Of a DNA stretch of 64,000 nucleotides, positions 5,530-22,716 are shown piece by piece. Location of the stretch: assembly GCA_027297745.1 (NCBI GenBank), contig JAPUHK010000024.1, positions 994 to 64,993 on the forward strand, written 5' to 3'. Source of the DNA: Planctomycetota bacterium. GTDB lineage: Bacteria > Planctomycetota > PLA2. The notes below the pieces were generated by a model. It was not told where the DNA came from, did no database searches, and was given only the letters and a program-made list of their open reading frames with translations. The stretch's first letter is position 1, and each line of letters starts with the position of its first letter. A program made the translations under genes and the position numbers.

Positions 5530-7149
5530 ATGACGATCCACGTTCGCAGCCCCGATCAGGACGACCGGCGCCTCGAGTTCCACAAGGCGAAGATCACGGT
5601 CGGGAGCAGCCCCATGTGCGACATCACCATCGCCGGGGACGCCGTGGCCGACGAGCAGGCGGTCCTGGTTCAGCGCGGCGACCACTTCGAGATCTTCGAT
5701 ATCGGGCGCGACGGGGCGGTGCTGGTGGGGGGCCGCCCGTGCCGGCACGGCGACGTCCTGGCGGGGCAGGAGATCTGGATCGGCGACGCGGTCTTGATGC
5801 CGCAGGCGCCCACGAAGGGAGTAGCGTTCGTGGACCGGGGAGAGGGACGCGTGACGGCCACCGTCTCGTCGACCCTCTCGAGCGTCGGCGGGACGTCCGG
5901 CGCGCCCGCCGAGCCGCGCCTGCGCCCGCTGCTCAACGAGGTCGTACGCCTGATCCACTCCATCGGCCGCAGCGAGAACATCTTCGAATCGATCCTCGAC
6001 TCCGTGTTCAGCAGCGCGCCGGTGCTGCGCGCCTTCCTCGCGCTGCGCGATCCCGAAGGCGAGCTGGTGGTCAAGGCGCACCGCAACCGGGAGCACGACG
6101 CGGACGACCAGCCGATCCAGGTCAGCCAGACGCTGGTGGGCAAGGTGCTCGACAGTGGAGAGGCGCTGCTCACCTCGGACGCGGAGGGGGACCCCAACCT
6201 GAACCTGGCGCAGTCGATCCAGAGCCTGCGCATCAAGGCCGCCATCTGCGTACCGCTGGTGGTCGACGGCAAGGTGATCGGGCTTCTGTACGGCGACAAC
6301 CGCGAGCAGCCGGGGATCCTCAACCGCGAGAACCTCGCTTTCCTGAGCGCCCTGGCCGGAGTGGCGGCCGTCGCCGTCGAGAAGTTCCGCTTGCTCGAGG
6401 AATACGACCAAAAGCTGCAGATCGAGCAGGCGCTGGCCATCGCGCGCTCCATTCACCGCAACTTCCTGCCCGCGGGACCGCCGCAGATAGAGGGCTTCGA
6501 CGTCTACGGCGACAGCGAGTCGTGCGACGCGACGGGCGGCGACTATTACGACTTCTTCCCGCTGAGCGAGGACCGCCTGGGCGTCGTGATCGCGGACGTG
6601 GCCGGGCACGGGATCGGCCCCGCCCTGCTGATGGCCAGCGTGCGCGCCACGCTGCGGGCGCTGCTGGTGGACGGGGCGTCGCTGAACGACCTCATGTTCC
6701 GCCTGAACGAGCTGATCAGCGCCGACGTCCGGGACGGCCGCTTCATCACGCTGTTCTTCGGCCTCTTCGACCGCAAGGAGGGGCGGCTGCAGCACATCGG
6801 CGCGGGCCACACGCCCACGATCTGGGTTCGCGGCGGCGGCGGCGCGCCGCGGCAGATCCGCAGCGGGGGCCCCCCGCTGGGCGTTATGAGCGGCGTGCGC
6901 TACGAGGTGGGCGAGGAGATCGCCTTCGAGCCCGGCGACGTCTTCCTGTTCTCCACGGACGGCATCCACGAGGCCATCGATCCGGCCGGCAAGCATTTCG
7001 GCCTGGAGCGGCTGGAGCAGAACCTCAAGGATCACGCGTCAGAGAGCGCTCAGGAGATGGTGGCCGCGGTCCACACGGAGCTGAACGTCCACGTAGACGG
7101 CGAGCCCCTGCGCGACGACACGACATTGGTGGTCGTGAAGATCGTCTGA
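5530..7149 (+). CDS. FHA-GAF-PP2C protein: a serine/threonine phosphatase of the SpoIIE/RsbU type.
   Basis: N-terminal FHA domain (RLEFHKAKITVGSSPMCDITIAGDAVADEQAVLVQRGDHFEIFD). Central GAF-like region. C-terminal PP2C motifs GGDYYDF, VIADVAGHG and DGRFITLFFGLFD. A GTG alternative start lies at 5524. Confidence 0.8.
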   Translation: MTIHVRSPDQDDRRLEFHKAKITVGSSPMCDITIAGDAVADEQAVLVQRGDHFEIFDIGRDGAVLVGGRPCRHGDVLAGQEIWIGDAVLMPQAPTKGVAFVDRGEGRVTATVSSTLSSVGGTSGAPAEPRLRPLLNEVVRLIHSIGRSENIFESILDSVFSSAPVLRAFLALRDPEGELVVKAHRNREHDADDQPIQVSQTLVGKVLDSGEALLTSDAEGDPNLNLAQSIQSLRIKAAICVPLVVDGKVIGLLYGDNREQPGILNRENLAFLSALAGVAAVAVEKFRLLEEYDQKLQIEQALAIARSIHRNFLPAGPPQIEGFDVYGDSESCDATGGDYYDFFPLSEDRLGVVIADVAGHGIGPALLMASVRATLRALLVDGASLNDLMFRLNELISADVRDGRFITLFFGLFDRKEGRLQHIGAGHTPTIWVRGGGGAPRQIRSGGPPLGVMSGVRYEVGEEIAFEPGDVFLFSTDGIHEAIDPAGKHFGLERLEQNLKDHASESAQEMVAAVHTELNVHVDGEPLRDDTTLVVVKIV

Positions 7150-7621: not shown

Positions 7622-8479
7622 TCAGTGCGAGGCCTTCCGGGTCGCCGCGGCGGCCCGGTCGACCAACCTCGCGTCCTTTTCCAGCCCCTGGCCGCGCAGG
7701 TAGCGGGCCCATGCCCCGTAGCGCTCGTGTGTGTCCAACTGCAGGGCCCACAAGAGCTTGGAGCGACAAACCGGGCACAGCAACAGGGGCCGCCGATGCT
7801 CCTCGTCACGGGTCGCCACCCCGTTCATGAGGCAGCGGTAGAAGGTGCAATGTTTCATCGCCAGAACGTGCCCGGCTTCATGGACCGCCATGGCCAAGAG
7901 CCGGCGGCGGGAGCCCGCGGGATCTGCGCTCTGCCAGACCCGGGCCGTGCTGACGATGGCCACCCCCAAGCGCTCCGACCCCCAGCCTTGGACGTAGTTC
8001 AGTCCCTTGGAGTAGAGGTCCCGGTCAGTCACGGCCACCGTGATCAGGGCGTCCTTGGGTCGGCGGGCGGCCACCGCGCGGGCCAGGCCGGTGATGTGCA
8101 CCTGGCGGCGCCGGCGGTTGTACGCGCGCAGCGGGATCGCCCGTGGCTCGAGCAGCTTGGCGGGCCGGCCGTAGAAGGCCGCCAGGCTCGCGCGCACTCG
8201 TTCAGGTAAGCCGGGATCTGTGGCCGGGCGGGTCAGCATGGGCACGACATAGAGCGTCGTGCGGGCGGCGGGCGGCCGGGCCGCGGACGCCTTGTATTCG
8301 GCAAAGGTCTGGCCCTCCTCGCGGTACTGGTCGAGCCACTCGCCGTCCTTCGGCTGGCCGAGGTGCTTCCAGACGCCCGGCGGCACAGGCACGTCCGCGC
8401 GCTTCCCGCCGTACGGGACGAGGAGCAGGAGGCACACTGCGACCGCCTTCATGAGCTGCCCGCGCGCGCGGGCGCTCAT
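7622..8479 (-). CDS. Secreted archaemetzincin-like zinc metallopeptidase (M54 family).
   Basis: HEAGHVLAMKHC followed by CTFYRCLMNG and CPVCRSKL matches the archaemetzincin signature HExxHxxGxxHC plus a Cys4 site. Signal peptide MSARARGQLMKAVAVCLLLLVPYGG. An alternative ATG lies at 8452. The remainder of the 956-aa track ORF is antisense noise. Confidence 0.75.
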   Translation of the reverse strand: MSARARGQLMKAVAVCLLLLVPYGGKRADVPVPPGVWKHLGQPKDGEWLDQYREEGQTFAEYKASAARPPAARTTLYVVPMLTRPATDPGLPERVRASLAAFYGRPAKLLEPRAIPLRAYNRRRRQVHITGLARAVAARRPKDALITVAVTDRDLYSKGLNYVQGWGSERLGVAIVSTARVWQSADPAGSRRRLLAMAVHEAGHVLAMKHCTFYRCLMNGVATRDEEHRRPLLLCPVCRSKLLWALQLDTHERYGAWARYLRGQGLEKDARLVDRAAAATRKASH

Positions 8480-8512
8480 GGTACCCGGCGTACCCGTCCG
8501 GGGGCCCTCCGT

Positions 8513-9658
8513 ATGATCGGTGGCTTGGCCAAGTTGCAAGCGTGTCCCCGCTGCCGCGCGCTGTTGGAGGCGGGCACCAAGAAGTGCCCGTACTGCAGCA
8601 CGCAGGTACAGAAGGCGGCCGTTCTCACGGCCCACGTCCCCGGCGACCTGGGCGACGCCGGCGCCGCGTATCCGCGCGCCGGCCGTGTGCTGATCGGCGT
8701 GTTCGTGGCGCTGTACCTGCTCATGCTCTACTTCGACCCCAACCGGGATGCGGGGATCCAGGGATGGACCACGCGGCCGTCGCATGCGGCCACATACGCC
8801 TTCGGAACGAGCAACCTGTTCGGCATCCGCGCATGCGGCCAGTCCTGGCGCCTCGTGTCGGCTCTGTTCATGCACCTGAGCTTGCTGCACCTGGCCATGA
8901 ACTCGGTCGCCGTGCTGATCCTGGCGCCGCTCGTGGTAGCGGTGCTCGGGCTCAAACGTGCGGGGGTGTTGTTCCTGTTGACCGGCCTGGCGGGCGCGGC
9001 GGCAAGCCATCTGGCGGGCTACGGCGGCGCGGGCGCATCCGGGGCGGTGTGCGGCGCCATAGGAGCGCTGTTGGCCTTCGGCAAACGGGAGGCGGGCCTG
9101 CGCGGCGCGGTCCTGATGCGCGCGATGAAGCAGTGGGTCATGATCCTGGTGCTGTGGACGGTGGTGGCGCTGGCCGCCAACATGAACATCGACCACATCG
9201 CCCACTGGGTCGGATTCGCCGCCGGGCTGGCGCTGGGTTGGTGGGGTGAAGGCGGCAGGGCCGGGCGGCTCAGCGGCGCGCCGCTCTGGAACGCGCTTTT
9301 CTACGCGGGCGCCGCGGCCGTCGTGGCCACGGCGTTCTTCGTGGGCGTGCAGGTGCAGCGCAGCTTTCACGCCCGGGACGTGGCGTTCTACAACCGGGGC
9401 TCCTTCCAGGCCTTGCAGAGGATCCAGCTCAGGCTTCACGGTGGGGGGGAACCTCTCGCGGCGAAGCTGGATCTGCCCGACCCGCCTCCGGGTTCGGAAG
9501 AGCTCGACCAGGCCTTGCGCGAGGCGTGGCAGGCCGTCCGCGAGAGTCCTTCGGCCGCCGCGGCGGTCTCCTCCTTCGACGCCGCCGAGCTGCTCTGGCA
9601 AGCTTGGAGAATCGAGAGCATGTGCCGGTACGGCCCGTGCGCCAACCCGGCGTCGTAA
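8513..9658 (+). CDS. Rhomboid-family intramembrane serine protease with an N-terminal zinc ribbon.
   Basis: N-terminal CPRCRALLEAGTKKCPYCS. Multiple TM helices. Catalytic-type GASGAVCGAIGAL (GxSG) and a downstream His in a TM segment (IAHWVGFAAGLALG). Start taken at the internal Met MIGGLAKLQ. Confidence 0.75.
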   Translation: MIGGLAKLQACPRCRALLEAGTKKCPYCSTQVQKAAVLTAHVPGDLGDAGAAYPRAGRVLIGVFVALYLLMLYFDPNRDAGIQGWTTRPSHAATYAFGTSNLFGIRACGQSWRLVSALFMHLSLLHLAMNSVAVLILAPLVVAVLGLKRAGVLFLLTGLAGAAASHLAGYGGAGASGAVCGAIGALLAFGKREAGLRGAVLMRAMKQWVMILVLWTVVALAANMNIDHIAHWVGFAAGLALGWWGEGGRAGRLSGAPLWNALFYAGAAAVVATAFFVGVQVQRSFHARDVAFYNRGSFQALQRIQLRLHGGGEPLAAKLDLPDPPPGSEELDQALREAWQAVRESPSAAAAVSSFDAAELLWQAWRIESMCRYGPCANPAS

Positions 9659-9754
9659 CGCCTCCGGCCGCTGAGGGGCGTTCATCCGCACCACACAGAG
9701 GCGTATACTGGCGCGCGGCGTCCGAGAGCCGCGTTGCCGGCAAGGGAGGGAAGC

Positions 9755-10612
9755 ATGAGTGAGTATGCACACCCCGGGATGATCGTCTCTACGCAGTGGT
9801 TGGCGGATCATCTCGACGACCCGGGCCTGCGCGTGATCGAGTCGGACGAGGACATCACGCTCTACCACTCCGGGCACATTCCCGGCGCGGTCATGGTCGA
9901 TTGGCAGAGCGAGCTGCAGGACCCCGTCGTGCGCGACTACGTCAACAAGGAGAACTTCGAGAAGTTGATGCGTGCGAAGGGGATCGGGCGCAACGACACG
10001 CTCGTGTTCTACGGCGACAACAGCAACTGGTGGGCCTGCTACGCGCTGTGGGCCTTCAAGATGTTCGGCCACGAGAACATGAAGATCCTCAACGGCGGGC
10101 GCCGGAAGTGGATCGACGAAGGGCGGCCGACATCGACGGACGAACCCGCCTATCCCGCCACGGACTACGAGGCGACGGGTCCGGACTACACGTGGCGCGC
10201 CTTCGCCGATGAGGTTCGCGAGTACGTCGAGGCGGACGGGCAGCTCGTGGACGTGCGCTCGCCCGGCGAATACACGGGCGAGCTGTTGCACATGCCCAAG
10301 TACCCGCAGGAGGGCGCGTTGCGCGCCGGACACATCCCCGGCGGCCGCAGCTGCCCGTGGTCGCGCGCCTGCAACGAGGACGGGACCTTCAAGTCCGCCG
10401 AGGAGCTGAAAGCTCTCTACGAGGGTGAGCTCGGGTTCGACGGCAAGCAAGAAGTGATCGCCTACTGCCGCATCGGCGAGCGCTCCAGCCACACGTGGTT
10501 CGTGCTGAGCTACCTGCTCGGCTACGGCAACGTGCGTAACTACGACGGTTCGTGGACCGAGTGGGGTAACCGCGTCGGCGCTCCCATCGTCAAAGGCGAT
10601 CAGATCCGCTAG
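9755..10612 (+). CDS. Two-domain rhodanese: thiosulfate / 3-mercaptopyruvate sulfurtransferase.
   Basis: A GGGAGGG ribosome-binding site precedes [11 protein letters not shown]. Tandem rhodanese domains. Active-site Cys in CRIGERSS (CRxGx[R/T] loop). Confidence 0.85.
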
Positions 10613-11150: not shown

Positions 11151-11465
11151 CTACATCAACCCGAGCTGCAGCTTCGCGCCCTCGGACATGCGAGTCATGT
11201 CCCAGGGCGGGTCCCACACCAGCTCGACGGTCGACTTGGTGACGCCTTCGACCCCTTTCACCTTCGTCTCGACCTCGGGCGGCAGCGTGCCGGCCACCGG
11301 GCAGGCGGGCGACGTGAGCGTCATCTTGATCGTGACCTCGTTGTCGTCGTTGATGGCGATGTCGTAGATCAACCCGAGCTGATAGATGTCGACGGGGATC
11401 TCGGGGTCGTAGCAGGTCTTCAGGGCGTCGACCACGCGGTCGTGGAGCGTCGTTTCTTCTGCCAT
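11151..11465 (-). CDS. sufT: SufT / DUF59 (MIP18 family) Fe-S assembly protein.
   Basis: 104 aa. YDPEIPVDIYQLGLIY and TLTSPACPVAG motifs are typical of DUF59/SufT. Confidence 0.75.
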   Translation of the reverse strand: MAEETTLHDRVVDALKTCYDPEIPVDIYQLGLIYDIAINDDNEVTIKMTLTSPACPVAGTLPPEVETKVKGVEGVTKSTVELVWDPPWDMTRMSEGAKLQLGLM

Positions 11466-11469
11466 CGTC

Positions 11470-11919
11470 TCACTCCGTGGTAACGGGAGTCTTCTTCTCG
11501 TTGAGCGCCGCCTGGAGGGTGTGCCAGGGCAAAGTAGCGCACTTCACACGCACCGGGAAGGCGCGCACGCCGAGCAGCACCACGAGCTTGCCGACCTTGT
11601 TGCGGGACTCCTCGTCGTCCTTCCGGCCCGTGACCAGGTCGTGGAAGGTCTGAAACAGCTCCGTCGCCTCCGTCACGGTCTTGCCCTTCAGCATCTGCGT
11701 CATGAGCGAGGCCGACGCGGTGGAGATGGCGCAGCCTTGGCCCTGGAAGCTGACATCCTCGACGACGTTCCCGTCCAGCTTCACGAACACGTGCACCTCA
11801 TCGCCGCACAGGGGGTTGTAGCCGTCGGCGCTGCGCGCGTCCGGGAGCGCGCGGTAGTTGCGCGGCTTGCGGCCGTGATCCAGGATCAGCTCCTGGTAGA
11901 GCTCGCGCAGGTCGCTCAT
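11470..11919 (-). CDS. sufU: SufU (NifU-family) sulfur-acceptor scaffold.
   Basis: MSDLRELYQELILDHGRKPRN. GYNPLCGDE, GQGCAISTA and KCATLPW motifs. Overlaps the sufS stop codon by 4 nt. Only the 3' 450 nt of the 428-aa track ORF is real. Confidence 0.8.
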   Translation of the reverse strand: MSDLRELYQELILDHGRKPRNYRALPDARSADGYNPLCGDEVHVFVKLDGNVVEDVSFQGQGCAISTASASLMTQMLKGKTVTEATELFQTFHDLVTGRKDDEESRNKVGKLVVLLGVRAFPVRVKCATLPWHTLQAALNEKKTPVTTE

Positions 11920-13181
11920 GCGCCGAAGAACTCTCGGGAGGCTTCCAGCGCCCGCACGAACGTGTCGACCTCCTCGAGCGAGTTGTAGAAGGCGAAGGAG
12001 GCGCGCGTCGTGGCCGGCACGCCGAACCGCTTCATCAGGGGCTGCGTGCAGTGGTGCCCCGTGCGCACGGCGATGCCTTCCTGGTCGAGGAAGGTGCCGA
12101 GGTCGTGCGGGTGCGCCCAGTCGGTGACGAAGGAGAGCACCGCCGCCTTGCATGTGGACGTGCCGAACAGCCGCACGCCGCCGATCTGCTGCAGGCCGTG
12201 CGTCGCGCGCGCCAACAGGCTCGTCTCGTGGGCGATGATGCCGTCGAAGCCGCCGAATCCCTCCAGATACTCGAGCGCCGCCGCGAAGCCGACGGCGGCC
12301 GCGACCGACGGCGTGCCCGCCTCGAACTTGCCCGGCGGCTCCCGGAACGTGGACTTGTCGAGCTGCACCGAGAGGATCATCTCGCCGCCGCCCTGGTAGG
12401 GGGGCATGCTCTCCAGCCACTTGTGCTTGCCGTACAGCACCCCCGTTCCCATCGGGCCGAACGCCTTGTGGCTGCTGAGCGCGTAGAAGTCGCAGTCGAG
12501 CTCCTGCAGGTCGACCTTCATGTGCGGCACCGCCTGCGCGCCGTCGAGCAGCACCGGGATGTCGCGCTCGTGGGCCAGCGCGACCATGCCCTTGACCGGG
12601 TTGACGGTGCCGAGCGTGTTCGACACGTGTACGAGCGCCACCAGCTTGGTGCGCTCCGTCAGCAGGTTGCCGTACGCCTCCAGGTCGAGCTGGCCGGAAT
12701 CGGTCACCGGCACGACCGTCAAGTGCGCCCCCACTGACTCGCACAGGAGCTGCCACGGCACGATGTTGGAGTGGTGCTCCATGGTCGTGATCAGCACCTC
12801 GTCGCCCGCGCCCACGTGCTGGCGGCCGAAGCTGGACGCGACCAGGTTGATGGCTTCCGTAGCGCCGCGCACGAAGACGATCTCGCTCACGTCGCCGGCG
12901 TTCAGGAAGCGCCGCACGGTCTCGCGCGCGCCCTCGTAGGCCTCGGTCGCCGCCTGGCTGAGCGCGTGCACGCCGCGATGCACGTTCGAGTTGATCTCCG
13001 TGTAGAAGCGCTGCAGGCGCTCGAGCACCACGCGCGGCTTCTGCGCGCTGGCGGCGTTGTCGAGGTAGACCAGCGGCTTCCCGTGCACGCTGCGTTCGAG
13101 CAGCGGGAAGTCGGCGCGCACGCGCTCGACGTCGATCGGCGCCACGGGCGAGCTGGCCCGGACTTCCTCGAGCGTGCTCAT
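11916..13181 (-). CDS. sufS: Cysteine desulfurase SufS (class II aminotransferase, group II).
   Basis: PLP-binding Lys in ALSSHKAFGP. Conserved active-site Cys in RTGHHCTQP. About 420 aa. Confidence 0.9.
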   Translation of the reverse strand: MSTLEEVRASSPVAPIDVERVRADFPLLERSVHGKPLVYLDNAASAQKPRVVLERLQRFYTEINSNVHRGVHALSQAATEAYEGARETVRRFLNAGDVSEIVFVRGATEAINLVASSFGRQHVGAGDEVLITTMEHHSNIVPWQLLCESVGAHLTVVPVTDSGQLDLEAYGNLLTERTKLVALVHVSNTLGTVNPVKGMVALAHERDIPVLLDGAQAVPHMKVDLQELDCDFYALSSHKAFGPMGTGVLYGKHKWLESMPPYQGGGEMILSVQLDKSTFREPPGKFEAGTPSVAAAVGFAAALEYLEGFGGFDGIIAHETSLLARATHGLQQIGGVRLFGTSTCKAAVLSFVTDWAHPHDLGTFLDQEGIAVRTGHHCTQPLMKRFGVPATTRASFAFYNSLEEVDTFVRALEASREFFGA

Positions 13182-13188
13182 CTCGCGC

Positions 13189-14429
13189 CTAGCCCTCCTC
13201 GTTCCCCGGCAGGCGGCTGTCTAACAGCCGGTCCGCCCGTTCGCGCACCGCAGCAACGTCGAGCCGCTTCGTGATCTCGCCCGCGAAGGCCCGGATCAGC
13301 AGGTTGCGCGCGCGGTCCTTCGTCAGCCCGCGGCTGCGCAGGTAGAACAGCGCCTGCTCGTCGAGCTGTCCGATCGTGGCGCCGTGCGAGCACTTCACGT
13401 CGTCGGCGTAGATCTCGAGCTGCGGCTGGGTGTCCATGACCGCGGTGTCGGTCAGGAGCAGGTTGGCGTTCGACTGGAACGCGTCCGTCTTCTGCGCATC
13501 CTCGTAGACGTGGATGCGCCCCGTGAAGACGCCGGACGACGCGTCGTCCAGAATGCCCTTGTACAGCTCGTGGCTTTCGCAGTGCGGCACCCGGTGCTCG
13601 ATGAGCGTGTGGTTGTCGACGTGCTGCGAGCCGCGCGTCATGAACAGGCCGTTGAGGGTGCCGAGGCTGCCCTCGCCACGTAGCGCGGCGGTGATGTCGT
13701 TGCGCGTGAGCCGGCCGCCGAGCGTCACGACGTTCGACGTGTAGCGGCTGTCGCGCGCCTGGCTCACCCAGACGTTCGACGTGTGGAAGGCGGACTCGTT
13801 CTCGAGCTGCAGGCGCGTGTGCTTCAGCGCGGCGTTTTCCGAGACCAGGACGACACCGACCGCGTTCGTCCAGTGCTCGCCGGTGCCCAGCGAGACGTAG
13901 GTCTCGACGATCTCGGCGCGCCCGTTGCGCTTGACGTGGTAGACGTTGCGCGGATGGCAGGCCTTGCCGTCCGTCCCGATGAACAGGACGTGCAGCGGCT
14001 CCGCAAGCTCGCCCTCCACCTCGACCACGGCCCCGTCCTCGAGGAACGCGGTGTTGAGCGCGACGAACGCCGGGGCGTCGTCCTTCAGCTCGAAGTCGAT
14101 CGTGTCCCGGATGCTGGCCAAGCTGACGCCGACCTGCGCGTCCGAGAGGTCGGCGCGGTAGTGGCCGTCCACGAAGACGAGACTGCCGCCGAAGCCGAGG
14201 CGGGCGACGTCGTCCGGAGTGACGCCGTTCGTGGACGGCCGCCCGAGCGTCAGGTCGCTCTTGGCGATCGGCGCCACGTTGGTGAAGCGCCAGTCCTCCA
14301 GATGCGTGTCGGGGAACCCGAGCTCCTTGAAGCGCGCGATGCCCTCGGTGCGCAGCGCGTGCAGCGCATCGGCCCCGCGCTCCTGCACGAGCGCCTCGTG
14401 GTCCCGAAGGATGCGTTCCATGGTGTCGG

Positions 14430-14433
<4 letters not shown>
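13189..14433 (-). CDS. sufD: Fe-S cluster assembly protein SufD.
   Basis: Position between sufC and sufS. C-terminal SufBD signature (QLEIYADDVKCSHGATIGQLDEQALFYLRSRG). Confidence 0.85.
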
Positions 14434-15185
<752 letters not shown>

Positions 15186-15236
15186 GTCTTTCGTTCTTCC
15201 TCTTCGCGCTTTCGCGTTCGTTGTCTCAGGGTTTCT

Positions 15237-16700
<1,464 letters not shown>

Positions 16701-16702
16701 GC

Positions 16703-17140
16703 CTATTGCACCTTTTCGAGGGGGGGAAACGTGACCGTGGTGGCCATATCGCTGAGCGGGATGTTGCGCAGCGCGTCGCGCACGGCCTGGTTGATGCGCT
16801 GCCAGTTCGTGCGCACGGGGCAGCAGAACTCGATGCCGCACTCGTCGGTGGCGGTGTCGAGGCACTCGGTCAGCGCGATGGGGCCCTCGGTAGCTTCGAT
16901 GATCTCCGCCACCGTGATCTCCTCGGCGGGGCGCGGGAGGCTGTAGCCGCCCTTCACGCCGCGGTACGAGACCAGCAGCCCCGCGCGGCCGAGCGCCTTC
17001 AGCGTCTTGCTGACGGTGGGCAGCGGCAGGCCCGCGCACTTGGCCAGGTCGCGGGCGTTCTGGACCTTCTTCTCGGGCGCGCCCGCGAAGTGGGTCATCA
17101 GAACGATGGCGTAGTCGGCCTGTCGGGTGAGTCTCAGCAT
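16703..17140 (-). CDS. Rrf2-family transcriptional regulator (IscR/SufR-like) with Cys ligands for an Fe-S cluster.
   Basis: N-terminal winged HTH ([39 protein letters not shown]). Cys cluster [17 protein letters not shown]. It sits 2 nt upstream of sufB and is the first gene of the suf operon. Confidence 0.85.
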
Positions 17141-17154
17141 GGGGCCCTCTCAAA

Positions 17155-17175
17155 ACAGGACTCTCGCGGTCCTGT
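17155..17175. promoter_or_regulatory. Perfect 7-bp inverted repeat ACAGGAC-N7-GTCCTGT, 15 nt upstream of the rrf2 start codon; candidate autoregulatory operator of the Rrf2 regulator.
   Basis: Seen directly in the sequence. Rrf2 regulators such as IscR bind palindromic sites overlapping their own promoters. A second palindrome, AGAGTACTCT, lies at 17184-17193. Confidence 0.45.
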
Positions 17176-17370
17176 ATGAAGAAAGAGTACTCTACAGACC
17201 CTATTTAGCTCGGTCAATCTTTCGCGCCCGCTCCCCGTCGGTTGCTCCGATCCCCTGCAAATCGTTGATCGGTAGGGCGTTGCGCGCCTCGGGGCGCGGC
17301 GCGTCTGCCACGCCTCCAGGGGTCTACATGGTTGCTCTGCCGCCGGTCGCGGACTGGGGGTGCCCCATCG

Positions 17371-18525
17371 CTACCGGCCGGTGCGGAGGGCCTGGACGGC
17401 CTCAACGACCCGGTCGGCGGCACGGTCGACCTCGGCCTCAGTCGTCGGGCGGCCGATGCCGAAGCGAAGGGCTGCCAGGGCCAGCTGCCGCGAGATCCCC
17501 ATGGCCTGCAGCACGTGGGAGGGGTCGACCTTGTCGGAGTGGCAGGCGGAGCCCGTGGAGAGCGCCAGGTCGGGCAGCGCCAGCAGCAGCGACTCGCCGT
17601 CCACGCCGTCGAAGCAGACGTTGAGGTTGCCGGGCAGCCTGGCCTCGCGGCAGCCGTTCACGTGCACGCCGTCGAGCCGCTCGAGCAGCGCGCCTTCGAG
17701 CCGGTCGCGCAACCGCGCCGTGCGTTCCGCCTCCTGCCCGGGCTCCTGCCGGCACAGCTCGCAGGCCATGCCGAGACCGACGATGCCGGGCACGTTCGAG
17801 GTGCCGGAGCGCATGCCGCGTTCGTGTCCTCCGCCGTGCATCTGGATCGTGATCTTCACCTCGGGGTCACGGCGCCGCACGTATAGCGCGCCGCAGCCCT
17901 TCGGCCCGTAGAACTTGTGCGCCGTCAACGAAGCCAGGTGTACGTGGTCCTTGCGCACGTCGAAAGGCACGCGGCCGACGGCCTGCGCCGCGTCCGTGTG
18001 GAACAGGATGCCGCGCGCCTCGGCCAGCTGGCCGATCTTGCGGACGCGATGTAGCGTGCCGACCTCGTTGTTGGCGGCCATCAGCGTGATCAGGACCGTC
18101 TGCTCCGTGAGCGCCGCCTCCACGTCCTCGATCCGCACGCGCCCGTCGGGCCCGACGGGGACCCATGTCACCTGCGCGCCGCGCGCCTCGACCTCGGCGA
18201 GCGAATCGAGCACCGCCGAGTGCTCCGTGCGGGCGGAGACGATGTGCGTGCCCGCGCCGCCGCATGCCTCGAAAACGCCCTTGATGGCCAGGTTGTCCGA
18301 TTCCGTGGCACCGGAAGTGAAGACGATCTCACGGGCCTCCGCCCCGATCAGCGCCGCAACGCGCTTGCGGGCCACCTGGACCGCCTCCTCGGCGCGCCAG
18401 CCGTAGGCGTGCCGGCTGGCGGCGTTCCCGAAATCGGCCTCGAAGAAGGGCAGCATCTCCTTCAGCACGCGGGGGTCCACCGGCGTGGTCGCGTGGTAGT
18501 CGAGGTAGATAGGGGGCTCAGCCAC
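17371..18525 (-). CDS. iscS: Cysteine desulfurase of the IscS/NifS type (class I).
   Basis: PLP-Lys in LASLTAHKFYGPKG. Active-site loop SSGSACHS-like (LSTGSACHSDKV). GTG start preceded by AGGATAAGG. Confidence 0.88.
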   Translation of the reverse strand: MAEPPIYLDYHATTPVDPRVLKEMLPFFEADFGNAASRHAYGWRAEEAVQVARKRVAALIGAEAREIVFTSGATESDNLAIKGVFEACGGAGTHIVSARTEHSAVLDSLAEVEARGAQVTWVPVGPDGRVRIEDVEAALTEQTVLITLMAANNEVGTLHRVRKIGQLAEARGILFHTDAAQAVGRVPFDVRKDHVHLASLTAHKFYGPKGCGALYVRRRDPEVKITIQMHGGGHERGMRSGTSNVPGIVGLGMACELCRQEPGQEAERTARLRDRLEGALLERLDGVHVNGCREARLPGNLNVCFDGVDGESLLLALPDLALSTGSACHSDKVDPSHVLQAMGISRQLALAALRFGIGRPTTEAEVDRAADRVVEAVQALRTGR

Positions 18526-18596
18526 GGGGCCTTATCCTAGCTTTCCAGCTCTGAGTACTGCTCGGACAGCAGATATGGGGGATATACTGACTAGCA

Positions 18597-18932
18597 ATGT
18601 CCAAGCTGGCCATGACCGACAAGGCGGCGGAGAAGATCCTCGAGTTCGTCGCCAAAGACTCCAAGAAACTCCAGGAACCCGGCCTGCGCGTGCGCCTGAC
18701 CGGCGGCGGCTGCTCCGGCTACATGTATCAGTACTCGCTGGACGACGGCCCCGCCGAGGGCGACGAGGTTATCGAGCACAACGGCGCCAGGCTGTTCGTG
18801 GACAAGAAGTCGCTCTTCTTCTTGGCGAACTCGGTCGTGGACTACGCAGAGTCGCTCATGAACTCCGGGTTCCGCGTTCAGAACCCGAACGCCAAGGGCG
18901 CCTGCGGCTGCGGCGAGAGCGTCTCTTTCTAG
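18597..18932 (+). CDS. A-type Fe-S carrier protein (HesB/IscA/ErpA family).
   Basis: 111 aa. C-terminal CGCGESF signature. Conserved Cys in GGGCSG. Confidence 0.85.
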   Translation: MSKLAMTDKAAEKILEFVAKDSKKLQEPGLRVRLTGGGCSGYMYQYSLDDGPAEGDEVIEHNGARLFVDKKSLFFLANSVVDYAESLMNSGFRVQNPNAKGACGCGESVSF

Positions 18933-18960: not shown

Positions 18961-19489
18961 TGAGCGTGTCCTTGACCTGCGCGACGAGCTCCGCGGCGGG
19001 CTGCTCCTCGGAGATCTTGTCTTGCAGCTCCATGAGGCCCTTGAGCACGGCCTCAGGGCGCGGCGGACAGCCCGAGATGTACAGGTCGACGGGTATCACC
19101 TCGTCGATGCCCTGGACCACGGGGTAGGAGCGGAACATGCCGCCCGAGGAGGCGCAGGCCCCCATGGCGATGCACCACTTGGGCTCCGACATCTGGTCCC
19201 ATACCCGCTTGACGACGTCGGCCATCTTGTAGGTCAAGGTGCCGGCTACGACCATCACGTCCGCCTGGCGCGGGCTGAAACGGGCCACCTCGGCCCCGAA
19301 GCGGGCCAGGTCGTAGCGCGAGCAGGCAACGGCCATGAACTCGATGGCGCAGCAGCTCAAGCCCATCGGGAGGGGCCAGAGGGAGTTCTTCCGGCTCCAG
19401 TTGATGAGCGCGTCGAGCCGTGAGAGGAAGAAACCGCCTTCCTGCTCGTGCTCGGTGACCTGGAGGTCCAGCGTGGTCGGGTTGGTCAT
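18956..19489 (-). CDS. Stand-alone NuoB-like protein (complex I 20-kDa / hydrogenase small-subunit family); second nuoB paralog.
   Basis: MTNPTTLDL... with the N2-cluster ligand pattern [13 protein letters not shown] and GCPP. It is divergent from nuoA and shares a 160-bp intergenic region with it. Start chosen at an internal ATG. Confidence 0.75.
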
Positions 19490-19650
19490 GGCCACGGAAA
19501 GTGTACCCCGCGACTCGTGCGGGGGCACCCTCGGGGGGCCGGGGCCGTCCGCGAATCTGGAAAGCCCTTGGTGCCACTGGAATAATCCCCTCTTTCGCGC
19601 CCAGGTATACGCACCCGATCGTGACACTCCAACTGCTCTTGGCCTCGACG

Positions 19651-20124
19651 ATGTTCCACAACTTGGGGAACGTGCTGATCTTCGCCCTGTTCGGCGGGGT
19701 CTTCGTCTGGGTGAACCTGTTCGTGATCGGCAAGCTCCTGCTGCGCCGGCCGCACAAGCCCAAGTTCGGCGAAAAGGAAGAGACCTACGAGTGCGGCGAG
19801 CCCACGATCGGCGACGCCTGGATCCGCTTCGACATCCGCTTCTACACGCTGGCGCTCATCTTTCTGATCTTCGACATCGAAGTGGCGCTGCTCTTCCCGT
19901 GGGCCGTGGCGTACGACGAGTTCATCGCCGCCGGCTTCGGGGCCGGCGCCTTTTTCGAAGTGCTGATCTTCCTGGTCGTGCTGGGCGTGGGCCTGGCCTA
20001 CGTCTGGTTGCGCAAGGACCTGAATTGGACCAGCACGCTGCCCGGACCGGCGGTGCCCGAGGAGGCGCTCGCAGGGGACGCAGTGGAAGAGAGCAAGCCC
20101 GCACAGGAGGAGGTCTCGGCATGA
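19651..20124 (+). CDS. nuoA: NADH-quinone oxidoreductase subunit A.
   Basis: Three TM helices. Conserved YECGEP and [12 protein letters not shown] motifs. A GTG alternative start lies at 19621. Confidence 0.85.
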
Positions 20125-21065
20125 CGCAGCAAGCACCCTCACGCCCGGGCCGCCCGGCGCACATGGCGCCGCCGGAGCGCTTCGACCCCGAGCTCGAGCG
20201 CACGATCCTCGTGACCAAAGCGGAGTGGCTGATCGACTGGAGCCGCAAGTCCGCCCTCTGGCCGCTCGGCTTCGGTCTCGCCTGCTGCGCGATCGAGATG
20301 ATCTCGACCGCTATGACGCGCTTCGACATCTCGCGTTTCGGCGCCGAGGTGTTCCGCGCCACGCCGCGTCAGGCCGACGTGATGATCGTGGCCGGCACGG
20401 TCACCCACAAGATGGCGCCCCGCGTGCGCCGGCTCTACGACCAGATGTCGGAGCCCAAGTGGGTGATCGCGATGGGCGCCTGCACCGTGGGCGGCGGGCC
20501 CTACTTCGTCTACGGCTACCACGTCGTGAAGGGCGTGGACAAGATCGTCCCCGTCGACATCTACCTGCCCGGCTGCCCGCCGCGCCCGGAAGCCCTGCTC
20601 GAGGCCATCATGCGCCTGCAGGAGCTGGTGCTCTCGCGCAGCAAGCGCATCCAGGGCAAGGATCCGCAGTACACGCCCCCCGAGCCCGGCTCGCGGCAGG
20701 CGGTAGCGGACAACGTCTCGCCCGCCGAGCCGTGGGAGACCGAGAAGGCGCACAAGTTCGACGACCCGAAGCGCGAGCGCGAGGCCCAGGTGCAGGCCGC
20801 GAAGGCGGAAGTCGCCAAGAAGCGCGCCGAGGCTGCTAAGAAGAAGGCCGAGGCCGAGGCCGCCGAGACCGAAGGGGCGCCGAAGCCGGAGGCAAAGGCG
20901 GCCGAAGAGCCCGCAGCGCCCCCGGCGCAACCGGCACCCGCCGAAGAGGGGCCTGCCGCCGAAGCGCCTCCCGCGGCAGAGCCGCAAGGGGAGCGCGAAG
21001 GCGACGCTCCCGAGCAGCCTGATGTGGGGGCCGGCGGCGACGAAGGAAAGGGCGCAGGCGAATGA
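20121..21065 (+). CDS. nuoB: NADH-quinone oxidoreductase subunit B with a roughly 130-aa Ala/Glu/Lys/Pro-rich C-terminal extension.
   Basis: [14 protein letters not shown] and PGCPP motifs. ATGA overlap with nuoA. The tail reads [50 protein letters not shown]. Confidence 0.88.
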
Positions 21066-21547
21066 CCGTGGCCGAGGCTCTGAAGCAAGCGCTGGGCGAG
21101 GCCGTCGAGGAAGTCGTCGACGAGGGGCCGAACCCCTTCGTGCGCGTCAAGGCTCAGAGCATCGTCGAAGCCTCGCGCGTGCTCAAGGACCAGTGCGGCG
21201 TCGAGATGCTGCACCTGATCAGCGGCGTCGACTACGCCGACCGCATGGAGGTCGTCTACCACTTCGCGACGCTGGGCGCCGCGGGCTCGTCGGATTCCGG
21301 CGTCCCCGCGTCGTTCCCCTGCGTGAAGGTGACGCTGCCGCGCGACAACCCGGTCGTGCCCACGCTGAGCGGCGAGTGGCGCTCCGCCAACTGGATGGAG
21401 CGCGAGACCTGGGACCTGCTCGGCATCCGCTTCGAAGGCCACCCGCATCACTACCGCATCCTTTGCCCCGAGGACTGGGTGGGGCACCCGCTGCGCAAGG
21501 ACTACGTGTTCCCCACCGAGTACCACGGGATCGACTGCACGGAATGA
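21062..21547 (+). CDS. nuoC: NADH-quinone oxidoreductase subunit C (30-kDa subunit).
   Basis: [17 protein letters not shown] motif. ATGA overlaps at both ends. Confidence 0.88.
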
Positions 21548-22716
21548 CCCCTGACATCAAGATCGACCACGACGAGCGGGCGGCTCCGGCGATCCCGCGC
21601 GACGTCCAGACCGAGGAGATGATCTTCAACCTCGGTCCCCAGCACCCGGCTACGCACGGCGTGCTGCGCGTGGTCGTGCGTACCGACGGCGAGATCGTGC
21701 TCGGTTGCCAGCCGCTGATCGGCAACCTGCACCGCTGCGCCGAGAAGATCATCGAGTCGCTCAGCTACGTGCAGGGCCTGCCCTACGTGGACCGCATGGA
21801 CTACCTGGGCTCGCTCAACAACGAGCTGGGCATCGCGCTGGTGGTGGAGAAGGCGGCGGGCATCGAGGTGCCCAAGCGCGGCCAGTACCTGCGCGTGATC
21901 ACCTGCGAGATCAACCGCGTCATCAGCCACCTGTTCAGCGCCGGGCAGTTCGGCCTCGACATGGGCGCTTTCACGCCCTTCCTGTACATGTTTCGCGAGC
22001 GGGAGGAGGGCATCCTGCTGCTCAACGAGATCACGGGCGGCCGGCTCCTGTACCACTACATCCGCTACGGGGGCGTCACGCGCGACGCGCCGGAGGGCTG
22101 GCTCGGGCGGGTCGTGAAGTGGTGCGACGTGGTCGACGGGCACCTCGACGAATACAACAACCTGCTCACGTACAACCGCATTTTCCTGAACCGCACCTGC
22201 GGCGTGGCCCTGTTGCAGAAGGATGTTTGTCTGAAATACGCCGCCACGGGGCCGATCCTGCGCGGCGCGGGCATAAAGCGCGATCTGCGCAAGGACATGC
22301 CCTACTCGAGCTACGAGGACTTCGACTTCGAGATCCCCGTGGGGCCCTTCGAGCACGGCGTGGCCGGCGACAGCTGGAACCGGCACCGCCAGCGGCTGTA
22401 CGAGATCGAGGAGAGCCTGAAGATCATCCGCCAGGCGTGCGCGAACCTCCCCGACGGCGACGTCGGCAACCGCAAGGTGACGCGCGCCTGGAAGGCGCCC
22501 CCGGGTGAGGCCTACGTGGCCACGGAAGCGCCGCGCGGCGAGCTGTCGTTCTATTTCATCTCCGACGGCGGCCGGAAACCGTACCGCATGAAGGCGCGCG
22601 GGCCGTCCTTCAACAACATCGCCGTTCTGGAGACGGAGGCGCGCGGCCTGATGCTGGCCGACCTGATCGCGCTGATCGGATCGGTCGACATCACGCTGGG
22701 GGAGGTGGACCGGTGA
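21544..22716 (+). CDS. nuoD: NADH-quinone oxidoreductase subunit D (49-kDa subunit).
   Basis: [14 protein letters not shown] and C-terminal RSYDPC-like region. 390 aa. Only the 3' part of the 564-aa track ORF is coding. Confidence 0.9.

Follow-up and report, generated by a model that had tools for sequence, protein, structure and literature searches.

A candidate autoregulatory operator of a RisR-like Rrf2 regulator in the suf promoter region of a Planctomycetota bacterium

We propose that positions 17141-17220 of the window, by which we mean the whole 64-kb stretch of DNA analysed here, contain the promoter and the operators of an autoregulated rrf2-sufBCDSUT operon, in which the holo-regulator would repress from two tandem sites, O1 and O2, and the apo form would release them. 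We put the probability of this reading, which draws on the analogy with RisR of Myxococcus xanthus (Sourice et al., mBio 2023, PMC9973013), at about 0.8. The perfect palindrome ACAGGAC-N7-GTCCTGT found in this region is, from sequence comparison, very likely the binding site of the adjacent Fe-S-sensing Rrf2 repressor on its own suf operon. The sites exist, are conserved in position across phyla and match the footprinted RisR motif; the regulator is a member of the SUF-regulator family.

Gene layout and candidate promoter-operator region

The regulator gene heads a predicted rrf2-sufB-sufC-sufD-sufS-sufU-sufT operon (11151-17140), whose genes lie on one strand with short or overlapping junctions and follow an order identical to that of M. 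xanthus risR-sufBCDSUT. The genes of the locus, each read from its start to its end, are as follows.

18525 to 17371, minus strand: IscS/NifS-like class-V cysteine desulfurase, upstream of rrf2 and in tandem with it
17140 to 16703, minus strand: rrf2 regulator gene, 145 aa, SUF-regulator / RisR-like type, Pfam Rrf2
16700 to 15237, minus strand: sufB, Pfam and NCBIfam matches
15185 to 14430, minus strand: sufC, Pfam and NCBIfam matches
14433 to 13189, minus strand: sufD, Pfam and NCBIfam matches
13181 to 11916, minus strand: sufS, Pfam and NCBIfam matches
11919 to 11470, minus strand: sufU (NifU_N), Pfam and NCBIfam matches
11465 to 11151, minus strand: sufT (DUF59/FeS_assembly_P), Pfam and NCBIfam matches

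Within the intergenic region upstream of rrf2, a promoter scan and a position matrix delimit the candidate regulatory elements. The matrix was built from 76 orthologous sites, with the window excluded, and was run over both strands of the 64 kb.

17212-17217, minus strand: predicted -35 hexamer TTGACC, from the promoter scan
17189-17194, minus strand: predicted -10 hexamer TAGAGT, from the promoter scan
17184-17193, no strand assigned: second palindrome AGAGTACTCT, the O2 GTAC half-site fused to the -10 hexamer
17181-17207, minus strand: candidate operator O2, imperfect, gene orientation TAAATAGGGTCTGTAGAGTACTCTTTC, second matrix match at 15.9 bits
17152-17178, minus strand: candidate operator O1, gene orientation CATACAGGACCGCGAGAGTCCTGTTTT, containing the perfect palindrome 17155-17175
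17145-17151, minus strand: ribosome-binding site GAGAGGG, 4 nt before the ATG, read from the sequence

The predicted promoter, TTGACC-17-TAGAGT (17217 to 17189), is the single promoter match in 16600-18700, where 0.2 are expected, and transcription would start near 17182. O1, the best matrix match in the window at 23.6 bits, reads caGGAC-N7-GTCCtg with flanks cata and tttt and lies between the predicted promoter and the ribosome-binding site, at about +5 to +31 from the predicted start. O2, whose centre is 29 bp from that of O1, spans about -25 to +2 and overlaps the predicted -10 hexamer together with part of the spacer. Of its two half-sites, the right one (GTAC) is intact and the left one (GGGT) degenerate. 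The GTAC of O2 lies inside AGAGTACTCT, and its first bases, GT, are the end of the -10 hexamer TAGAGT. O1 and O2 are the only matrix matches above 8 bits in the 64 kb; the maximum over 20 shuffles was 12.5 bits.

Read on the plus strand, the palindrome consists of ACAGGAC at 17155-17161, a 7-nt spacer and GTCCTGT at 17169-17175 with zero mismatches, exactly as the first-pass annotation had reported it; AGAGTACTCT is likewise present where that annotation had placed it. The repeat at 17155-17175 is separated from the ATG at 17140 by 14 nt, extends imperfectly into 14-nt arms that are 79% complementary, and occurs as a single exact copy within the window. The region around it (17141-17220) has a G+C content of 50%, compared with 68% for the whole window.

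We note that the perfection of the palindrome was discarded as evidence of function, since perfect 7-N7-7 repeats occur at a random rate in this GC-rich window: we counted 8, against 10.9 in random (Markov-1 or shuffled) sequences, and thus no excess. Similarly, perfect inverted repeats with arms of at least 7 nt and spacers of 0-12 nt number 154 in the window against 134 ± 15 in Markov-1 random sequence. Allowing up to three mismatches to the palindrome pattern gives 4 matches in the window where 2.4 are expected; those at 7118, 28143 and 49920, each with three mismatches, were rejected as further copies because their count is at chance level and none passes the matrix. The significance of the palindrome therefore comes solely from its conservation in orthologous promoters and from its match to a footprinted motif.

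The intergenic region (17141-17370) does measure the 230 bp given in the first-pass annotation, which had also called it divergent and shared with iscS. Both flanking genes lie on the minus strand and are co-directional. The suggestion that feedback might extend to iscS fails as well: the operator lies downstream of the IscS-like gene, and a matrix scan upstream of that gene found no site, with a best score of -4.4 bits. We therefore rejected operator control of the IscS-like gene on grounds of wrong orientation and the missing upstream site. It is conceivable that the operators could at most roadblock read-through from it. The encoded desulfurase falls under all NCBIfam equivalog cut-offs (IscS, 491.8 against 548; NifS, 436 against 530), and its gene has no adjacent IscU partner. 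No canonical terminator was found in 17221-17370; GC-rich inverted repeats at 17283-17303 and 17342-17378, 3' of the stop codon of the IscS-like gene, lack a T run. In close relatives, a Mrp/ParA-type ATPase gene takes the place of the desulfurase upstream of the regulator, which indicates that the operator travels with the regulator and not with the upstream gene.

Two further observations concern the neighbourhood of the operon. At 19335-22716 on the plus strand, a 576-aa protein with a C-terminal NuoB-like Oxidored_q6 domain overlaps a 564-aa Complex1_49kDa protein, the domain of the latter resembling NuoD and the NiFe-hydrogenase large subunit. In relatives (e.g., L082, 1313-1846), a short, 177-aa Oxidored_q6 protein is encoded just upstream of the regulator, with a HesB/IscA-type gene on one side and the Mrp-type ATPase gene on the other, an arrangement that may point to a repeated association of a NuoB-like protein with Fe-S assembly genes in the clade of the window. 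Downstream of the suf operon, a 956-aa open reading frame (7622-10492, minus strand) has as its sole Pfam match a weak, C-terminal one to peptidase M54 (archaemetzincin), at 27 bits.

Conservation of the operator in orthologous loci and close relatives

The orthologous set comprises 80 rrf2-suf loci that a scan of species-representative genomes yielded; their regulators share 50-66% identity with that of the window. The loci span Planctomycetota, Acidobacteriota (many of them Thermoanaerobaculia), Chthonomonadales, Sumerlaeota, Gloeobacterales, delta- and alphaproteobacterial metagenome-assembled genomes (MAGs) and others. Orthologous promoters were where the first-pass annotation had expected the motif to be missing if its proposal was wrong; the core GNAC-N7-GTNC is present within 300 nt upstream of the regulator gene in 76 of the 80 loci. 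By comparison, it occurs in 0 of 78 coding control segments and at a density of 0.045 per 300 nt elsewhere in the orthologous loci. The motif co-occurs with the regulator gene across at least eight phylum-level groups. Together with the match to the RisR motif and to the SUF-regulator model TIGR02944, these counts support the earlier proposal that the palindrome is the operator of the adjacent Rrf2 protein and probably mediates Fe-S feedback on the suf operon.

The 76 sites give an asymmetric 27-bp consensus, GAAWYMGKAC-YRNNNYR-GTMCTGTTT, in which the flanks are also conserved, with A at position -5 in 72 of 76 sites and T at two gene-side positions in 66 and 75 of them. The gene-proximal TGTTT is far better kept across these sites than its promoter-side mirror W-Y-M; this could reflect a constraint that the -10 box and start region place on the left side of the operator, or unequal contacts of the dimer with the two flanks. 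A recognisable sigma-70-like promoter is present at 51 loci, and at 47 of these the -10 hexamer precedes the start of the core by 5-16 nt, most commonly 12 nt. The core of the window starts 16 nt after the -10 box, farther than this commonest distance.

At four of the 80 loci (L009, L064, L070 and L076), the strict core is absent upstream of the regulator. Variant cores are seen in L076 (CACGAC-N7-GTCAGG) and L064 (AGACC-N7-GTCTTG), and the four cases suggest either diverged specificity or mis-set start codons. Five other, distant orthologous loci (L005, L017, L034, L048 and L069) carry two matrix matches or visible sites, with spacings of 25, 35 or 65 bp rather than the 28-29 bp of the clade of the window.

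The arrangement of the window recurs in its close relatives, taken as contigs encoding regulators 72-90% identical to that of the window. Wherever the upstream DNA of a relative is long enough, two matrix matches of 17-23 bits are present with centres 28-29 bp apart; none of 400 random 250-mers reached 9 bits. Alignment of these promoters reveals invariant blocks, GTAC in O2 and GGAC...GTCC...TTT in O1, within surrounding sequence that diverges. The relatives have -10 equivalents at the same place (TAAGGT, TAGAGT or TAGGGT), and -35 elements were read as TTGACC in L082 and TTGAAC in L086. We note that the O2 of the window is the weakest of the clade, scoring 9.1 bits (uniform background) against 17-21 bits in the relatives.

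The same alignment decides the status of AGAGTACTCT, which the first-pass annotation had taken for an independent site. At its position the relatives have the non-palindromic 10-mers AAGGTACTAT, AGAGTACTAT or AAGGTACGGT, and only GTAC is invariant. We therefore rejected AGAGTACTCT as an independent operator: the palindrome is not conserved, and what the relatives keep is GTAC, as the right half-site of O2 lying over the -10 hexamer.

We suggest, tentatively and as somewhat less than an even prospect, that the clade has a fixed two-operator design that may allow cooperative dimer binding near the same face of the DNA and a steeper Fe-S switch than the single footprint of M. xanthus, and that the 27-bp consensus is the first family-wide description of a RisR/IS6 operator. 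If this is true, the consensus could serve for regulon prediction in uncultured lineages.

The regulator, the proposed mechanism and its alternatives

The regulator scores 115.5 bits against Pfam Rrf2 (PF02082, cut-off 30), the only family above its Pfam cut-off, and 133.3 bits against TIGR02944, an equivalog model for the SUF regulator with a cut-off of 110.65. It is also 100% identical to a protein from a Planctomycetota MAG named 'SUF system Fe-S cluster assembly regulator' at NCBI. Every Rrf2 equivalog other than TIGR02944 fails: the regulator reaches 65.7 bits against a cut-off of 207.55 with the IscR model TIGR02010, 44.6 against 275 with the IscR model NF008110 and 48.1 against 182 with the NsrR model, and it falls far under the cut-offs of the RirA and CymR models. 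Scores with HTH_20 (22.1 bits) and MarR_2 (19.8 bits) are both below the 27-bit cut-offs and thus give no sign of an ArsR/DeoR-type SufR fold. The proposal of the first-pass annotation that the protein is an Rrf2 regulator of the Fe-S-responsive kind is supported by its membership of the SUF-regulator family, whose model TIGR02944 it passes. Its choice of IscR, RsrR or SufR as comparators has to be replaced, since the protein lies far under the IscR cut-offs and the proper comparator is RisR.

Alignment with 38 homologues reveals little or no variation at Cys93, Cys101, Cys107, Asp9, Arg60 and the wing glycines. The three cysteines are spaced C-X7-C-X5-C, and the wing motif reads R60-G-x2-G-G-x2-L (G61, G64, G65, L68). 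A PDB search returned no solved structure of the subfamily of the regulator; the best match was IscR of Thermincola potens (4cic), at 57 bits.

In the mechanism that we propose, a sigma-70-type promoter, TTGACC-17-TAGAGT, would be flanked and overlapped by two tandem regulator sites, each taken up by one homodimer via its winged helix-turn-helix, with each monomer touching a G(G/T)AC half-site along with A/T-rich flanking DNA. Under adequate Fe-S supply, the regulator would carry a cluster on its three conserved cysteines and occupy O1, and probably O2, and this occupancy would prevent RNA polymerase from binding, forming the open complex or escaping the promoter. Scarcity or oxidation of clusters would cause the apo-protein to leave the DNA, so that the suf genes and the regulator itself become derepressed. 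The outcome would be a negative feedback loop on Fe-S status. We propose this mechanism, including binding, cluster dependence, the sign of regulation, the transcription start and the cooperativity of O1 and O2 as we infer them, because of the analogy with RisR and the positions of the sites.

Four other explanations of the palindrome were weighed. It could act as RNA, either as a hairpin in the rrf2-suf 5' leader that affects translation, stability or attenuation, or as a terminator of the IscS-like gene. The predicted transcript does include the repeat, which folds into the expected stem ACAGGAC...GUCCUGU and is followed by a short U run (UUUU), with the ribosome-binding site 3 nt on. However, the leader fold of -15.3 kcal/mol is hardly distinguishable from that of shuffled sequences (-12.4 ± 2.6; z = -1.15; 26 of 200 shuffles equal or better), Rfam gave no match at E <= 1, and a terminator scan found no terminator-like site. 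Moreover, only the GAC/GTC pairs are always complementary among the 76 sites. Watson-Crick pairing at the fourth core position is found in 46 of 76, and at the three flank positions that extend the stem of the window to 7 bp complementarity is seen in 39, 33 and 26; a stable stem is thus not conserved, since pairing outside GAC/GTC varies. The asymmetric flanks (GAAWYM against TGTTT) fit a protein site, and the promoter sits between the IscS-like gene and the repeat, where a terminator would halt suf transcripts. On the fold z-score, Rfam, the terminator scan and the unconserved pairing outside GAC/GTC, we rejected the hairpin, terminator and attenuator readings, and consider a role as RNA highly improbable. 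A functionless palindrome that arose by chance within an AT-rich promoter island would agree with the random frequency of perfect 7-N7-7 repeats (8 against 10.9). Yet 76 of 80 orthologous loci, and every close relative, carry the core and its flanks in the corresponding position amid diverging sequence, and this comparative evidence effectively refutes the chance reading.

The remaining two explanations accept a protein site and differ in its occupant or in its logic. The site might belong to another regulator, of the Fur/PerR type or an Rrf2 paralogue, with the link to the adjacent gene being incidental; suf promoters of other bacteria do also carry Fur and OxyR sites. Against this stand the accompaniment of the regulator gene by the motif in at least eight phylum-level groups, the failure of the matrix to find a copy elsewhere in the 64 kb, and the combination of 2-fold symmetry, GAC-N7-GTC spacing and AT-rich flanks, which is that reported for RisR and typical of Rrf2 dimers, and we regard ownership by another regulator as extremely unlikely. 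Alternatively, the Rrf2 protein could bind the site with the opposite logic, the apo form binding and activating, or both forms binding; apo-IscR of E. coli activates suf at type 2 sites (PMC9973013). The sites nevertheless cover the -10 box and the beginning of the transcribed region, as those of a repressor would, and for RisR of M. xanthus, the one characterised member with this motif and order of genes, repression is by the holo form and activity is lost in the triple-Cys mutant (PMC9973013). With the regulator also far under the IscR models (65.7 bits against 207.55), we judge an inverted logic to be very unlikely.

Comparison with known Fe-S regulators

The Rrf2-type SUF feedback circuit is already known and has so far been studied experimentally only in M. 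xanthus. To this circuit, our analysis adds a Planctomycetota example and comparative support from many phyla, while the understanding of the control of Fe-S homeostasis is unchanged. In practical terms, promoter, operators and regulated unit are now better annotated, and the gene orientation is corrected. The position matrix can be used for locating such operators in metagenome-assembled genomes.

RisR (MXAN_1152, WP_011551272.1) is an Rrf2 protein of M. xanthus that belongs to subgroup IS6, far from IscR, and its gene is the first of risR-sufBCDSUT (PMC9973013). Its spectrum suggests a [4Fe-4S] cluster, with C92, C102 and C108 as ligands; when risR is deleted, suf rises about 90-fold and isc about 15-fold, and the variant altered in all three cysteines has no activity (PMC9973013). 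At both the suf and isc promoters, the footprint of holo-RisR covers about 30 bp around the motif T(t/g)GAC-N7-GTCC(t/a) with AT-rich flanks, and mutation of a half-site in its operators results in 3- to 4-fold derepression (PMC9973013).

The resemblance to the window covers gene order, protein and site. The regulator of the window is also the first gene of rrf2-sufBCDSUT, and it shares with RisR the wing motif Gx2GGx2L with the equivalent of Arg59 (R60 in the window). Both proteins place their three cysteines in the context GP(I/V)ALTEC...C-x-(I/L)-E-x-x-C-x-VR-x-x-W, RisR being compared over a 33-residue fragment that was rebuilt from Cys-to-Ala primers and aligns to residues 86-117 of the window regulator with the three cysteines in register. 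The sites have in common the core GGAC-N7-GTCC and A/T-rich flanks, the right flank being TGATT in the RisR site and TGTTT here, and an overlap with the core promoter, which is a predicted one in the window. Wild-type suf and isc sites of M. xanthus, rebuilt from the 4mut primers of PMC9973013, score 23.4 and 11.5 bits with our matrix, and O1 of the window scores 21.4 on the same scale. The taxa of the orthologues (Acidobacteriota, Chthonomonadales, cyanobacteria and delta-proteobacteria) agree with the description of IS6 in PMC9973013; a search with a Polyangia homologue gave no Myxococcus protein among the 120 matches listed.

Several differences set the two systems apart. The cysteine spacing is C-X9-C-X5-C in RisR and C-X7-C-X5-C in the window regulator. 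The window has two tandem sites, one of them mostly past the start, whereas the suf promoter of M. xanthus has one footprint of about 30 bp over -35/-10. M. xanthus also has an isc target, while no second target with a site is present in the 64-kb window, and the phylum of the window, Planctomycetota, is absent from the IS6 examples in the text of PMC9973013.

The IscR type 1 consensus, given in the literature as ATASYYGACTRwwwYAGTCRRSTAT (E. coli / Pseudomonas aeruginosa), matches the window site at only 8 of 12 positions per half-site by hand count. Both are 25-bp dyads with GAC-N7-GTC spacing and A/T-rich ends, and both would serve a cluster-loaded Rrf2 dimer in the autorepression of an Fe-S operon headed by the regulator, here by analogy. 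The IscR promoter of E. coli, PiscR, has more than one type 1 site. The two differ next to the core, which is SYY-GACT in IscR and yM-G(G/T)AC-y in the family of the window. IscR acts on suf by apo-form activation at type 2 sites, and nothing in the window suggests type 2-like logic. Furthermore, IscR has a [2Fe-2S] cluster with Cys3His ligation, while that of RisR appears to be [4Fe-4S] (PMC9973013).

SufR (COG2345, ArsR/DeoR-like) is described as an Fe-S-cluster repressor of suf in cyanobacteria, mycobacteria and Streptomyces. It resembles the window regulator as an Fe-S-bearing repressor whose gene adjoins or heads the suf operon and which exerts Fe-S feedback on suf, a role that the window regulator would fill by analogy. 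It is of an unrelated family and fold with other operator sequences, the window regulator being an Rrf2 protein (PF02082).

NsrR, an Rrf2 protein with a [4Fe-4S] cluster that senses nitric oxide, differs from the window regulator in its regulon (hmp and related genes) and motif, and no NO-detoxification genes lie near the regulator in the window. The two nevertheless have the same fold and three cysteines. In NsrR, an aspartate near the N-terminus is the fourth cluster ligand, and Asp9 is invariant in the family of the window regulator. RisR itself is closer to NsrR than to IscR (PMC9973013).
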